From IMG/VR virus record IMGVR_UViG_3300027801_001565: 64,000 nucleotides of DNA; one strand, written 5' to 3'. Below the pieces are notes generated by a model that saw only the letters and a program-made list of their open reading frames with translations, made no database searches and was not told the origin of the DNA. Below, in pieces: positions 36,078-41,033 of the stretch. Position 1 is the first letter of the stretch, and every line of letters starts with the position of its first letter. This stretch comes from a virus. A program made the position numbers and the translations under genes.

Positions 36078-36737
36078 TTAGGAGAGATGATCTGCGGATT
36101 CGCCCGAGATATCCTCAATCATGTTGCGCCACATGTCGATTTGAGGGATAACATAGGCTAATGTGATGCGTGGTTCGTGTGTTCCAGCACAATGATAGTA
36201 CACTTTCTCGGGTTCTCTGCCCTTGCCGTAGTATCCTACCTTACAAGACCAACCACCAGGATCATCCATAGTGACTATCTCATGTGTTTTGGCGTCCCTG
36301 TACTTAAAGAAGCCGCCTCCCTTCTCTGTATATGATAGAAGGATATTATAACCAGAGGCGTTCCAGTTATTGTGCCACCCCATATAACCATCAACTGGAT
36401 AGTATACATGAACTGCCTCATTTCTAGCTCCTAGAAACTCCAATAGTGTAGATGACATTTGTTCGTGTTTAACTCTAAAGTTGTCAGGGCATAGGTGTTT
36501 TAGTCCCATTAGATCAAAGCTTCTAGAGATTTCGGGATAGCCTACATGTGCGCCATCCTTTTGTAATATCTTAGCTAAATACTCAGGTCCACAACAATAC
36601 TCCATATCAACTTTAGTGTCGTTCTTTTCGTTTTCGTCTGATAACTTATTCAATGGTTCCAAGTCTTGACTAAAAAACCAATCGCTGTAGGGCGTAAGAA
36701 TATCTAAGAGTTCATCACTTATATCGGTAAATATCAT
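36078..36737 (-). CDS. Cupin / 2OG-Fe(II) oxygenase-like protein
   Basis: YYP..GYMGWHNN...YYHCA....PRITL double-stranded beta-helix pattern (HxN...H...R). Confidence 0.55.
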   Translation of the reverse strand: MIFTDISDELLDILTPYSDWFFSQDLEPLNKLSDENEKNDTKVDMEYCCGPEYLAKILQKDGAHVGYPEISRSFDLMGLKHLCPDNFRVKHEQMSSTLLEFLGARNEAVHVYYPVDGYMGWHNNWNASGYNILLSYTEKGGGFFKYRDAKTHEIVTMDDPGGWSCKVGYYGKGREPEKVYYHCAGTHEPRITLAYVIPQIDMWRNMIEDISGESADHLS

Positions 36738-37867
36738 AGTGGTGCACTCCTTGAATTGTGATCTTTACTAAACATTAATTTTTCTGCCGTATATTGTTCT
36801 TGCCATGTGTAATCATATCGTGTAGATTTGTTCTCTATTATATTAAGATCGTTGTCAACAAAGCCTACTGCTGTTATGTTATCACACTCTTTAATTATTA
36901 TATCTAATGATTGCCAAGAGTCGTCTGGAAACAATTCAAAAGCTGGCATACCCATGACTGCATCTCCTACACCTGTTTTAGGATCATTGTAATCATAACC
37001 TTTATCTTCTAGCCACTTAATAAAACCTGATTCTTCATCCATCCTATATAAATCTAATTCATTGCCAGGACCTGTAAGACATATTTGTACTTCGCCTACC
37101 ATAATACAATGTTGAGATATGCCGGTCTCATCTATGTATTCGTCTCCATCTTCAAACACCTCTCTAAGTGTTTTTCCTGTTTGTGCATAGTATGGAACGA
37201 GTGCGCCCCATAGTATTCCTGACTTTCCCCAGTCATTACTATGTTTGTCTTCATAATAATATTTTATTCTCTCCTTGCGTTTAACTCCATCCCAACAGAA
37301 ACTGTTGTAGCTTATTCCTGTCCAACCATATGATTCAAAATCTCCATGCCCAGGTGATATGGCGTGTACATAATTTTCTATTTCATGGCAGGCATTATTA
37401 AGGCAATGTGTAGCCCAACGAGTATGGTTATCCATAATCTCATACCACTTACTTACACTCCATGTTTGTCCTATAAGTACCTCGAAGTGATGATGTAGTT
37501 GATTAAAATCATCACGAAATAAATCGGGAGTCCAACAACGCTCAGGTGTAAAGTGTTGTGTTATAGTAGGAAAGTCTGTTAGTCGGGTATTAATAACTTC
37601 AATAGCATCATTAAGTTCATCACATATCTGTTGTACGTTACGACTCCATGGCTGATCTTTTGTTTTAGGAAAGCCTTTATTCATAAAACGTTTATCTAGA
37701 AGTGCGTATGATGTTTGATTATCTATACCTATATAGTTGGATATAAGTGTTTTCTTCCAAAACTGAGATATATGCTTATCATTAATATTCCAATACATGG
37801 TGAAAGCACTCTCACCATTAGAATACTCTACAAAGAATCGTTCATTATCAAGTGTCTGTCCAATCAT
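36734..37867 (-). CDS. Hypothetical protein, possibly metal-binding
   Basis: 377 aa; helical His/Glu motifs NQLHHHFE and LNNACHEIE. Confidence 0.6.
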   Translation of the reverse strand: MIGQTLDNERFFVEYSNGESAFTMYWNINDKHISQFWKKTLISNYIGIDNQTSYALLDKRFMNKGFPKTKDQPWSRNVQQICDELNDAIEVINTRLTDFPTITQHFTPERCWTPDLFRDDFNQLHHHFEVLIGQTWSVSKWYEIMDNHTRWATHCLNNACHEIENYVHAISPGHGDFESYGWTGISYNSFCWDGVKRKERIKYYYEDKHSNDWGKSGILWGALVPYYAQTGKTLREVFEDGDEYIDETGISQHCIMVGEVQICLTGPGNELDLYRMDEESGFIKWLEDKGYDYNDPKTGVGDAVMGMPAFELFPDDSWQSLDIIIKECDNITAVGFVDNDLNIIENKSTRYDYTWQEQYTAEKLMFSKDHNSRSAPL

Positions 37868-38610
37868 AGACGACCCTTTCTATTCCCAGCAGTTACTTCA
37901 TGTTGAGGTATAGTGTAGTGATAGAAAACTATATCTTCGTCTTCTAACTCTTCCGGGTTGTGTCCGTTGATAAAGTTCCATTTAACATGTAAGTCTTCTC
38001 CCCATCTCACACCATGATCGCTATAAGTTAAAAGCTTCCACATGGTGAAGGTGTCCCACTTACGAGCTGCCTTAGGATAGTCTCCAATTGGAATTGTCTC
38101 GTCCTGCTGTTTAACATACTCTCCCCACCAAGAATCCATTAGTCTAATTGTCTTTGGATTATTTCTGTATATAAACATGCCACAGTGCATTGTCATCTCT
38201 TCCGTATTAGAGAGTTTCGTTAGCGCTGCGTTGTATGGTCTAATCTTTGTGAACAACAAATCTAAATCATCTGGGAGTTGATCAAACACATCTGCAACTG
38301 CCTCATCCTGACATACCATATCGGCATCCAAGTAACAAGTCTTACCCTTGTATGGTGTTTGTCCTAACGCCCATAGTTTAGCTCTTATATGTTTAGGAAC
38401 TTCCCAATGTACAATATAGTCTGCGTGGTTCCAATCGCTTGGTTGTATCCAAGATTCATCATCTGTATAGACTGTAATGTGTGCTTCAGGCCAAAACAAT
38501 TTAACTGACTCTGCACATTCAATAGCTGCTTTATAAAATCTAATAGACTTAGATGCTACTATAATAAATCCATTATCAGGGAAGTCCTCAGGCTTTCTTA
38601 GCATCTTCAC
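37864..38610 (-). CDS. GT-A glycosyltransferase (nucleotide-diphospho-sugar transferase)
   Basis: RAKL.AL..TPY..TCYLDAD, HCG.F.Y, WDTF, WNF and FYHYT motifs. Confidence 0.8.
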   Translation of the reverse strand: MKMLRKPEDFPDNGFIIVASKSIRFYKAAIECAESVKLFWPEAHITVYTDDESWIQPSDWNHADYIVHWEVPKHIRAKLWALGQTPYKGKTCYLDADMVCQDEAVADVFDQLPDDLDLLFTKIRPYNAALTKLSNTEEMTMHCGMFIYRNNPKTIRLMDSWWGEYVKQQDETIPIGDYPKAARKWDTFTMWKLLTYSDHGVRWGEDLHVKWNFINGHNPEELEDEDIVFYHYTIPQHEVTAGNRKGRL

Positions 38611-39130
38611 CAATAACTCCTATCAGCTTAAGTTCTTCGGCTAGTAGTATGCTAGTTAACGCTTGCACTTCTAAAGGCGTTTTAGCTTTACGAACTAGTT
38701 TCTTGAGGGTATTGTTTTTAGAGCTTTTAAGCATTGGTATTTCAAATGCTTCAAGCTTTACATTGAATAGTTGTTCTTGTTTGGCTCTTACAATTTCAGC
38801 TTCGCGTCTTTGTAAGCGTTTCTTGATGTGTTCATCTCTACGCCTGACACCTTCTGCTGTATTAGCATCAATGACGTCTTCGCCATATTCTTCTAGTACT
38901 GCTGAGTAGTCTGGGTTTGTTCCATCTTTATCTTGTATTGATGCGGTAGCTTTTCTACCGTCTGGATACTCAATAGTAACGATGAGATGTTTGTGTTCCT
39001 TACTAGACCAGTAAGGATCTATAAATTTGTATTTACGTTCTTTTGGTGCTTCGGGTTCAGACTCAATAAACTTCTTGTCGGTCTTAATAACCTTAGCTTC
39101 TAAAGGAATGCTCTTCTTCGGCTTTGCCAT
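38588..39130 (-). CDS. Hypothetical protein
   Basis: 180 aa, charged; GGAG RBS. Confidence 0.65.
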   Translation of the reverse strand: MAKPKKSIPLEAKVIKTDKKFIESEPEAPKERKYKFIDPYWSSKEHKHLIVTIEYPDGRKATASIQDKDGTNPDYSAVLEEYGEDVIDANTAEGVRRRDEHIKKRLQRREAEIVRAKQEQLFNVKLEAFEIPMLKSSKNNTLKKLVRKAKTPLEVQALTSILLAEELKLIGVIGEDAKKA

Positions 39131-39151: not shown

Positions 39152-39159
39152 TATTTATA
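39152..39159 (-). promoter_or_regulatory. Late promoter of the 39130-36078 cluster
   Basis: TATAAATA. Confidence 0.75.
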
Positions 39160-39166
39160 CTGCTAG

Positions 39167-40489
39167 TTAAGCAGTTCTCAACCACAGCCTTACCGTTCCT
39201 ACCGTTGAACTAGAGCTTTGTATTGTATCGCCTGCGTATGTGCCTGCGTATGCTCCAGTATAGTTACCTGCGTATGTACCTGAATAGTAACCTGTATATG
39301 TTCCGGCGTATGTACCTGCATAAGCAGATGTTCCTACATATGCTCCAGAATATGAACCTGAGTAAGCTCCTGCGTATGTTCCGGAATAACTCTTAGCACC
39401 TGTGTAATACCCTGTGTAATAACCTGTGTAATAACCTGTGTAAGAAGTACCTGCATAACCTGAGTAATCATGAGCATAAGAGCCTGCGTAAGCTCCCGCG
39501 TAAGCTCCTGCGTATGCTGAGGTTCCTACATATGCTCCAGTATAGTTACCAGTATAGCTGCCTGCGTATGCTCCTGAATAACTCTTAGCACCTGTATATG
39601 CTCCTGCATAGCTACCTGAGTATGTGCCTGCGTATGCTCCAGTATAGTTACCGGTATATGTACCTGAATAACTACCTGTGTAATTTTGTGATGTTACGTT
39701 TTTAGATGTATCTGTGAAACCACCTGCGTCTCCCATCTGTACCCATGTGCCTGAGCCAGGAGCAGATGATTGTAAAGTGTAAGTCCCTTTACCTTGTCCA
39801 TCCATTATTCTGTTTCTAAAATTTGGAACTAGTTGTTCCATTTCGGCAACGGACATTTCTTTAATTCCGTTTGAACCTTCTACTTTAACTGGTTTGAAAT
39901 TTGAAACTGCTGCTGTTGTAGCTGCTGTTTTCTGCCAAATATACATTGTTGCTGTTGTGCCGTCTACCTGAGTATCGTCTAATTGATATCTAGATGTCCA
40001 CGTACCACCTGATGGTGTAGATGAATTTAATGAATACTGTCCAACTGTATAGTCACTACCTGAAACCATTGAAGCTACAGTTTTGTCTATAATATCTGTA
40101 TCTAGTTGTCCGTCTGTAAACTCGTTTAATCCCGTTGTACCTGATGTTAAGTAACCTATAGGCCTGTTGGTAACACTCTCTGATGCTGTTGCACTAACTT
40201 GTTTAGCTGTGTAAGTAGTTACAGTAGAAGATGCACCGTCTGTTGGATGTGTTCCAACTGCGTCATCTCTTTTAGTATCTGTAATTGAACCAATGGTTGT
40301 ACCGGAGCCTGAGCCGTCTGTTGTTACATTAAGTTCCCCTGTACCTGTTCCATTACTATTATCAGCAAAGTCCTTTGTCAGAATTGCTGAGAAATATTGT
40401 TCTATTTCATTATCTGACATTTCTTGCAGACCCTGGAAGTTTGAACTACTAACTGGATATGAAGATGCTTTGACTTTTAATGGGATCAT
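39167..40489 (-). CDS. Putative virion protein: three repeated domains plus an xYxG tetrapeptide array
   Basis: Three PxK/G...G(L/I)xE(M/F) domains and a 152-aa xYxG array; last gene of the baseplate run. Confidence 0.7.
   Translation of the reverse strand: MIPLKVKASSYPVSSSNFQGLQEMSDNEIEQYFSAILTKDFADNSNGTGTGELNVTTDGSGSGTTIGSITDTKRDDAVGTHPTDGASSTVTTYTAKQVSATASESVTNRPIGYLTSGTTGLNEFTDGQLDTDIIDKTVASMVSGSDYTVGQYSLNSSTPSGGTWTSRYQLDDTQVDGTTATMYIWQKTAATTAAVSNFKPVKVEGSNGIKEMSVAEMEQLVPNFRNRIMDGQGKGTYTLQSSAPGSGTWVQMGDAGGFTDTSKNVTSQNYTGSYSGTYTGNYTGAYAGTYSGSYAGAYTGAKSYSGAYAGSYTGNYTGAYVGTSAYAGAYAGAYAGSYAHDYSGYAGTSYTGYYTGYYTGYYTGAKSYSGTYAGAYSGSYSGAYVGTSAYAGTYAGTYTGYYSGTYAGNYTGAYAGTYAGDTIQSSSSTVGTVRLWLRTA
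39230..39685 (-). repeat. 12-bp-period coding repeat, about 36 x (x-Y-[TASV]-G)
   Basis: NYTG SYSG TYTG ... AYAG TYAG. Confidence 0.95.
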
Positions 40490-40499
40490 TGTTGTTTCC

Positions 40500-41033
40500 T
40501 TAGTTTACTCTGGTGCCTGATGCGTCATATACTACCACTGGAACTAATCTATTCCATTTGGTAGCAGCCACACCGACTAGTTTTAATGAGTGGCCTGATG
40601 CTAAATCAACGGAAGCGTTTGTTGCTCCTGCGTCAATAGATTCGCCAGTTGTTGGGTATATCTTAATAGTGTTTGCTGAGTCATTAAGTATTGTTATTTC
40701 TAACCCTGCTGCTGTATCAGGTAGTTTAACACCTTGATTTGCTGTTGCAGTGGTTACAATATTGTATGTTGATGTAAGGCCTGTGGCTGCTGCCTGATCT
40801 GTTCCAGCTGCTGAAACAGTGGCAGAAGTACTTAGAGTACTTGAACCCGCTACCGAAATATTCGAAGACAGTGCTGCTGTAGTGCCAGTAAAGGCGCCAG
40901 AAGCGGCTAACGTTCCTGCTGCTATGTTAGAGCCTGACTCGTATTTATCGGTATTAAGATTTGTAAAGTTACCGTCTACTTCGTTGTTGGTAAGTGGACT
41001 ACCCTTTGCTGCTCTTAATGTTATAGTTGCCAT
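40500..41033 (-). CDS. Small fibre/adaptor virion protein
   Basis: ITLR..KGSPLT.NEVD.NF.NLN N-terminus; V.LP...G..I.I.N C-terminal domain. Confidence 0.65.
   Translation of the reverse strand: MATITLRAAKGSPLTNNEVDGNFTNLNTDKYESGSNIAAGTLAASGAFTGTTAALSSNISVAGSSTLSTSATVSAAGTDQAAATGLTSTYNIVTTATANQGVKLPDTAAGLEITILNDSANTIKIYPTTGESIDAGATNASVDLASGHSLKLVGVAATKWNRLVPVVVYDASGTRVN

Follow-up and report, generated by a model that had tools for sequence, protein, structure and literature searches.

The window analysed here is a 64,000-nt stretch of viral DNA (IMG/VR record IMGVR_UViG_3300027801_001565), and its open reading frame at positions 39167..40489 (−) encodes a protein of 440 amino acids (aa) (P0001; 440 codons plus stop) in which an array of four-residue xYxG units lies within the third of three tandem repeats. 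Comparison of the array with those of its relatives showed that the two halves covary in length, in the position of the two-residue breaks that interrupt the units and in the type of these breaks. This strongly indicates that the two arms would pair antiparallel about a turn at G344/Y345 and would lengthen a hairpin of a predicted beta-prism by roughly 25 nm. No sequence family or solved structure matched the protein, which very probably folds back on itself and would represent a kind of protein not previously described. As the best explanation for the whole, we consider it probable that the gene codes for an MABP-type prism carrying an xYxG hairpin rod, a late baseplate or tail-fibre protein of an uncultured marine T4-like myovirus.

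The gene consists of three tandem repeats of ~100 aa, all features given below being on the (−) strand. In the AlphaFold2 model, for which 60 relatives were used as input, the three-repeat core was predicted with a local confidence score (predicted local distance difference test, pLDDT) above 90 and with a strand-helix-strand order three times over. Repeat 1 (approximately residues 1–112, 40154..40489) contains the hairpin E64–74/E88–97 with a 13-aa loop (residues 75–87), and repeat 2 (approximately residues 113–204, 39878..40153) the hairpin E163–173/E179–189 with a 5-aa loop (residues 174–178). These loops are equivalent to the array in repeat 3, whose upstream part (residues 205–268, 39686..39877) ends in FTDTSKNVTSQ, its last strand continuing into the array. 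The last strand of repeat 3 (residues 421–440, DTIQ...LWLRTA, 39170..39229), in which T422, L435 and T439 are invariant in the alignment of relatives (alignment A1), closes the prism downstream of the array. Repeats 2 and 3 of P0001 align with each other at E = 2e-4, and together with the threefold order of the model this bears out the sequence-only reading that had placed the array inside the third of three repeats, the other two having only short loops.

The array occupies residues 269–420 (152 aa, 39230..39685), and a script parsed it as eight units, AK, five units, TS, three units, SYAH, DYSG, YAGT, four units, AK, five units, TS and eight units. The earlier parse, 8-AK-5-TS-4-[DYSGYAGT]-4-AK-5-TS-8, is right if SYAH, with His in the place of Gly, is taken as a unit and the perfect unit DYSG is counted with the turn. 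G344 and Y345 straddle the exact geometric midpoint, which divides the array into an ascending arm of 76 aa (residues 269–344, 39458..39685; 8 units, AK, 5 units, TS, 5 units) and a descending arm of 76 aa (residues 345–420, 39230..39457; YAGT, 4 units, AK, 5 units, TS, 8 units). The central DYSGYAGT (residues 341–348, 39446..39469), the sole site where the four-residue phase slips, by one residue, contains the predicted turn, with AlphaFold2 strands at 329–340 and 350–363 alongside. The first AK break (residues 301–302, 39584..39589) would lie opposite the second TS break (residues 387–388, 39326..39331) in the hairpin model, and the first TS break (residues 323–324, 39518..39523) opposite the second AK break (residues 365–366, 39392..39397). 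The array is nearly uncharged (Y 26%, G 23%, A 18%, T 14%, S 12%; only 2 K, 1 D and 1 H), and its DNA has a period of 12 nt (Tandem Repeats Finder), equal to four residues.

The relatives comprised 509 near homologs obtained by a word-seeded search and 605 representatives of 50%-identity clusters obtained by an exhaustive search, with lengths from about 300 to 2503 aa, and their architectures were read by unit parsing and with a Viterbi parser. Equal arms were kept in more than a dozen repeat architectures, the N and C arms agreeing within 6 residues in most classes, over a range of about 16 to about 150 residues per arm. Near relatives, the cores of which are 68–75% identical, presented at least 11 symmetric architectures with differing unit counts, including (a slash marking the midpoint) 5-5-5/5-5-5 (about 48 clusters), 4-AK-5-TS-4/4-AK-5-TS-4 (about 33 clusters), 8-5-4/4-5-8, 8-5-5/5-5-8, 4-5-5/5-5-4, 5-2-4/4-2-5, 4-TS-5-AK-3/3-TS-5-AK-4, 6-5-5-5/5-5-5-6 and 5-2-2-2-4/4-2-2-2-5, the last in two break orders (AK,TS,AK,TS or AK,AK,TS,TS). 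The symmetric forms were the abundant ones. At the midpoint, the relatives presented a recognisable turn motif, a Gly-less unit followed by a normal unit and then by an out-of-phase four-residue piece. All symmetric near relatives had their Lys-type breaks (AK, PK, NK or GK) opposite Ser/Thr-type breaks (TS, SS or TG).

In most near-relative classes the outer flanks agreed with each other (4/4, 5/5, 6/6, 8/8) and yet differed from the inner segments. Read as a direct repeat, the array would match its outer N flank to the inner segment of the second arm; since the outer flanks agree while differing from these direct-repeat counterparts, duplication or gene conversion between the arms cannot explain the match. 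Several relatives were mirror-symmetric without being direct repeats: P0111 (AK,TS,AK,TS,NK/TS,AK,TS,AK,TS, with a 1-unit spacing beside the tip on both sides), P0122 (AK,AK,TS/AK,TG,TS), P0123 (SR,PA,SR,SR/SR,SR,TA,SR), P0219 (spacings of 17,1,3,5,6,5,3,1,17), P0145 (eight single-Pro breaks per arm) and P0125 (708 aa, with 13 matched pairs of breaks along arms of around 200 residues). In P0125 the Arg-containing breaks were always one unit apart between the arms and all others were exactly opposite. A block-shuffle test gave p≤0.05 in 27 of 52 informative architectures and p≤0.01 in 17 of them, about 2.6 being expected at 0.05. Homologs with other repeat numbers thus keep equal arms, which had been the check proposed for compensated insertions and deletions, and they include forms that direct duplication could not have produced (P0111, P0122, P0123, P0125 and P0219), with a few asymmetric exceptions that are described below.

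The offset of Arg-containing breaks was also observed elsewhere. In P0123, P0133, P0125, P0162 and P0190, breaks ending in Arg (SR, DR or TR) had a partner break always one unit (4 residues) farther from the base, and the non-Arg breaks of these subfamilies (PA/TA, TG/PA, AG/GA and AK/TS) were exactly opposite, a geometry specific to the motif. Members of 1100–2503 aa (P0124, P0134, P0140, P0170, P0183, P0210 and others, with the locus L001 9007-18987 noted beside them) carry several separate aromatic-period arrays, and in some members Gly at position 4 is replaced by Arg, Lys, Gln or Glu. The family may include giants with more than one hairpin or prism.

The symmetry of P0001 itself is a different matter. 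Its strongest self-similarity is direct, at a lag of 64 aa (192 nt), with a DNA identity of 62% overall and 78% between the AK..TS blocks, and the order of its breaks (AK,TS/AK,TS) is direct and not palindromic. The symmetry of the AK/TS landmarks is uninformative because two direct copies of an equal-sized block with two landmarks are mirror-symmetric by arithmetic; what is informative in P0001 is only that the outer flanks are equal, at 8 units each, and that the phase breaks exactly in the middle. No inverted repeats were found at the DNA level in the array, the symmetry being confined to the architecture of the protein. Shuffling the blocks of the P0001 array attained the observed mirror coherence in 1 of 1000 trials, and in 9 of 2000 in a separate run, a result that for P0001 alone is suggestive and not decisive. 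The unit counts and breaks are therefore as symmetric as had been claimed, although as evidence they are far weaker than was claimed, being mostly a consequence of the 64-aa direct repeat.

The first and last 24 residues of the array showed 85% DNA identity at a lag of 128 aa, which suggests that the extra outer units of the 8/8 form may have been copied from one arm to the other, a possible route to compensated lengthening. The array ends (39230-39298 and 39615-39682) were 85–88% identical in DNA in direct orientation, far exceeding the remainder of the array. Tyr and Gly codons are mixed and the DNA identity at the lag of one unit is only 58%, so that the periodicity appears to be maintained at the protein level and not to reflect recent slippage. 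It had been argued that plain slippage would not be expected to keep the arms equal; this holds for the relatives with mirror and not direct architectures, and in P0001 the direct repeat explains most of the symmetry.

We also considered whether these forms could be products of assembly. Assemblies in 54 blocks of the collection contained the exact 427-aa protein, on contigs of up to 159 kb and in samples of the European Nucleotide Archive (ENA) and of JGI belonging to various projects, and a 429-aa form was present on 165-kb Tara scaffolds; an assembly artefact is unlikely for the main architecture classes. Complete asymmetric forms were each a singleton on one contig and may be transient intermediates or assembly chimeras. 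Other candidates for asymmetry, among them P0002, P0009, P0021, P0052 and P0084, were rejected, since they were frameshifted, cut at contig ends or ended in adapter sequence. One of them, P0002 (340 aa, on a 170-kb ENA contig), is the counterpart of the gene at 39167-40489 of the window and is 100% identical over the searched residues 1–268; its array reads 8-AK-4 units and then shifts frame into an unrelated Arg/Leu-rich tail, reflecting either an insertion or deletion in the repeat in another assembly of the same phage or a circulating frameshifted variant. Covariation between the arms, measured as mutual information by anti-diagonal, was determined for the 405-aa and 427-aa classes, in which only 16 and 7 distinct arrays, too few for this purpose, were available; 4 of the 8 top covarying pairs of the 405-aa class fell on anti-diagonals near the centre, which is suggestive and was not counted as evidence.

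In the AlphaFold2 model of P0001 the array extends the hairpin of repeat 3 (E258–277 with E410–438), and a second pair of strands (E329–340/E350–363) surrounds the midpoint. Because the array extends this beta-hairpin, its two ends must meet. The model of P0172, which has a 72-residue array, presented the strands E274–295/E345–374 and E306–314/E326–334, symmetric about residue 320.5, the midpoint of its array. Both models agree, with low confidence, with a hairpin. A homotrimer prediction (residues 205–440, alignment A1, three copies) returned a score of 0.00 and a mark of 0.42 with an uncertain fold of the partner, speaking neither for nor against oligomers, and a scan of registers by avoidance of Tyr-Tyr clashes left the candidate neighbouring registers indistinguishable.

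To place the core among known folds, both models were aligned against 48,161 solved chains, which gave an identical top group of MABP-type beta-prisms: the C-terminal prism of Mpf2Ba1 (8b6v, Z 7.3 and 7.7), the prism of Plu-MACPF (2qp2, Z 7.5), the MABP domain of MVB12B (3tow, Z 6.1) and the P2 domain of perforin-2 (6sb1, Z 6.0 and 5.8). The top four MABP-type chains aligned over 110–125 residues at a root-mean-square deviation of 3.2–5.4 Å, well above the next unrelated rows, and only 7 chains reached Z≥2 with the P0172 model. The three-fold pseudo-symmetry of MABP prisms fits the three tandem repeats of P0001. As to a collar of the gp10/gp11/gp12 type, such as carries the gp37 needle, T4 gp11 was a weak match to the predicted core (Z 2.4 over 47 residues), the base domain matching MABP prisms instead. 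Because Z remained below 8 and no sequence signal accompanied it, we treat the core as showing a resemblance to the MABP-type fold and not as a member of the family.

Searches by sequence and by structure were negative. Foldseek gave nothing at E≤0.001 for the P0001 model in the PDB and in viral predicted structures, a profile of 60 relatives had no match at E≤1 among PDB sequences, and Pfam, PHROGs and NCBIfam contained no family for the array protein. The glycine zipper families PF13441 and PF13488 scored 27.4 bits (cut-off 28.9) and 17.4 bits (cut-off 25), with no stretch passing alone, and the match is compositional. The array, with its period of four residues, does not follow the collagen-like or polyglycine-II pattern of Gly at every third residue. 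A literature search for 'tyrosine ladder' hairpins in phages found only unrelated work, such as a paper on tentaclins (PMC10743442).

Several points weigh against the single hairpin. The array had a pLDDT of 30–50, and its mid-arm stretches were not modelled as paired, pairing being limited to the base and the tip. The beta-prism matches, with predicted structures and Z below 8, are in the range where the tool warns of a common arrangement. About half of the informative divergent architectures failed the shuffle test, partly because the parser and its anchors failed on degenerate units. Moreover, complete asymmetric forms exist: a 409-aa class (P0069 and P0075, arms of 72 and 52 residues), found in both ENA and JGI, as well as P0019 (62/80) and P0038, so that the equality of arms appears to be a strong tendency and not an absolute rule. 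The hairpin is thus well supported by the comparison and weakly by structure prediction: of the single long antiparallel hairpin with matched breaks that had been proposed, the matching of the arms in relatives and the extension of the repeat-3 hairpin stand, and a confident AlphaFold2 hairpin was not obtained.

An isolated two-stranded ribbon of such length would lack a hydrophobic core, and the monomer may not be the real form. It is possible, and we give this tentative weight, that the arms of several subunits intertwine into a multi-stranded needle, a barrel or a cross-beta stack, either as three chains with six strands, as in the T4 gp37 needle, or by face-to-face pairing of small residues. 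A 25-nm ribbon without a core would favour such an arrangement, and low AlphaFold2 confidence for a monomeric array is frequent in obligate oligomers. The T4 gp37 needle is itself a trimeric out-and-back insertion in the D10 collar domain, flanked by residues 811–881 and 1010–1026 (PMC6957217). All the comparative evidence fits intertwined arms as well as it fits a monomer, since each chain must go out and return to its prism, so that equal arms would still be required. However, the core is predicted to be a single-chain pseudo-threefold prism and not a trimerizing collar, and the array, with one His in 152 residues, contains no His-x-His motif and hence no metal site of that kind. We regard it as improbable that the array is a disordered, sticky low-complexity loop, resembling in composition the [G/S]Y[G/S] tracts found in FUS-type proteins, or an adhesive loop set within a domain, with a symmetry due to tandem 64-aa duplication and chance. 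A pLDDT below 50 across the array agrees with disorder, and the direct 192-nt lag is the strongest self-similarity, duplication alone explaining the AK/TS symmetry of P0001. In contrast, disorder and duplication predict neither the equal outer flanks of the 4-, 5-, 6- and 8-unit classes, nor the mirror-not-direct architectures (P0111, P0122, P0123, P0125 and P0219), nor a turn motif kept at the midpoint over a tenfold range of lengths, nor the rule that AK faces TS; moreover, every second position is alternately Tyr or Gly, which is a strand pattern. A beta-solenoid or beta-helix, in which each 64-aa super-repeat or each segment between breaks would form one or more coils, is very improbable. 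Short Gly-containing repeats are often solenoidal in phage fibres, which was counted in favour of this fold together with the 64-aa direct period of P0001. The relatives, however, have no fixed direct period, their segments between breaks being of 1, 2, 3, 5, 6 or more units in mirror arrangement; a solenoid could form without equal halves or a turn motif at the centre, and no stacking of coils was observed in the AlphaFold2 models.

Returning to the prism with a single hairpin rod, the protein would be a late structural component of the baseplate or tail-fibre module. The three repeats are predicted to fold into one pseudo-threefold MABP-type beta-prism, the repeat-3 hairpin of which would be lengthened by the 152-aa array. 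The array would fold back at DYSG/YAGT into a two-stranded antiparallel ribbon with about 76 residues per arm, roughly 25 nm long if straight. Selection would hold the arms in register, units and two-residue breaks gained or lost on one arm being matched on the other and AK-type breaks facing TS-type breaks. In the register p+q=690, which we infer, every Tyr would lie opposite a residue at a Gly position and K302 opposite S388, and one face of the ribbon would be a Tyr/Gly checkerboard, the other presenting small Ala/Ser/Thr/Asn residues. Judging from the position of the gene and from analogues, the rod would most likely stand out from the virion and act, singly or in a bundle with copies from neighbouring subunits, as a tyrosine-clad probe or adhesive bristle when the host surface is first touched; this adhesive or sensing role, bundling through the small-residue face and modification of the array by the products of downstream genes are speculative. 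A more far-reaching version, which we hold to be rather doubtful, is that the protein represents a new class of surface organelle in phages: a beta-ribbon bristle, clad in tyrosine and tunable in length, on a single-chain beta-prism. Such a bristle would be adjusted from about 5 to >50 nm by compensated gain and loss of repeats, like an RNA stem. It might form bundles with those of adjacent baseplate subunits and might be hydroxylated or glycosylated by the products of three accompanying genes, and abundant oceanic T4-like phages would use it as their first-contact adhesin.

Should the hairpin prove real, it would rank among the longest self-paired beta-hairpins in nature and would be a rare protein instance of stem-like compensatory evolution, with insertions and deletions matched across the arms and AK-type paired with TS-type breaks. 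It would also be a case in which long-range strand pairing was inferred from sequence only, where structure predictors fail, and would offer a natural scaffold whose length could be adjusted four residues at a time. Ocean metagenomes are rich in members of the family: the exact protein occurs in many Tara, ENA and JGI samples, in addition to the 605 representatives at 50% identity. The family has no annotation and lies in the module for host recognition in uncultured T4-like phages that are relatives of pelagiphages and cyanophages. Its abundance and its position in this module make it a candidate for the first host contact of these phages.

The closest known analogue of the proposed design appears to be the elongated hairpin of perforin-2, the MABP domain of MPEG1/perforin-2 having been described as carrying an 'extraordinary elongated beta-hairpin', the tip of which binds membranes (PMC6753088). 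MPEG1/perforin-2 (6sb1, 6u23), Plu-MACPF (2qp2), Mpf2Ba1 (8b6v) and MVB12B (3tow) share with the predicted core a pseudo-threefold prism made from three repeats, and in MPEG1 one prism hairpin is greatly elongated and touches the target surface with its tip, in likeness to the array. MABP proteins nevertheless showed no detectable sequence similarity to P0001 in Pfam and among PDB sequences. The MPEG1 hairpin is far shorter, lacks a tetrapeptide repeat and is part of an immune protein that forms pores, not of a virion. The T4 gp37 needle (2XGF) is a trimer of six intertwined strands with seven iron ions on His-x-His motifs, and it requires the chaperones gp38 and gp57A (PMC6957217). Like the array, it is a long, thin out-and-back excursion in a small globular domain of a T4-type tail-fibre module, with arms that must match and a distal tip; the array differs in its single His, in its strict Tyr/Gly period of four residues and in its base domain.

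A known prism-type protein with a WFFG core also has short units duplicated around a central core motif, which binds its target in a beta-hairpin conformation. However, its prism type and host are different, its pseudo-repeats number only four, much of it is flexible and it binds through the WFFG core and basic residues, and matching of arm lengths has not been reported for it. OspA-derived peptide self-assembly mimics contain aromatic cross-strand ladders in flat single-layer beta-sheets, and an 'aromatic rescue' of glycine in sheets also occurs. These would offer a physical rationale for rows of Tyr beside Gly stabilizing a sheet without a conventional core, although they concern engineered or short natural sheets and not a natural hairpin of 76 residues per arm, and their relevance here is presumed.

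The genomic context agrees with a likely late virion role of the array protein. The window belongs to a T4-like myovirus, and just upstream of the array gene lie homologs of gp6, a wedge protein and gp8, a 2089-aa DUF4815 protein and a small virion protein (phrog_473). The closest cultured relatives by gp6, at about 35% identity, are pelagiphage HTVC008M, Melnitz methylophages and cyanomyoviruses. Phages with other array architectures keep the gene order, which runs from gp6, wedge, gp8 and the DUF4815 giant through proteins of 77–82 and 166–177 aa to the xYxG protein and then to proteins of about 180, about 250 and about 220 aa. When P0001, P0172 and P0140 were searched by tblastn against 50,697 phage records, no cultured phage and no annotated homolog was found, the only match being to the N-terminus of a giant hypothetical protein of the uncultured Phage C48C1 (28–29% identity). 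This homolog is the start of a protein of >3300 aa encoded downstream of tail fibre and chaperone genes.

The T4-type late promoter word TATAAATA occurred 23 times in the window, 8.4 occurrences being expected, and no shuffle equalled this count. One copy lies 78 nt upstream of a gene for a 177-aa protein, and this gene ends 10 nt before the array gene. Most copies of TATAAATA are on the minus strand ahead of structural genes, and another is found at 39152-39159 (−), directly after the stop of the array gene. The 177-aa protein (40500-41033, −) begins MATITLRAAKGSPLTNNEVDGNF..., is Ala/Thr/Ser-rich and fibre-like, has no family match and is kept in synteny at 60–68% identity; it is possible that it serves as a partner or attachment piece for the array protein. 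Downstream (36078-39130, −), the genes for a 180-aa, a 249-aa glycosyltransferase-like and a 219-aa protein are 61–67% identical to those behind the homologs in two phages of differing array architecture (L002 9321-11386; L005 9327-11579), and a 377-aa gene at 36734-37867 is absent from L002.

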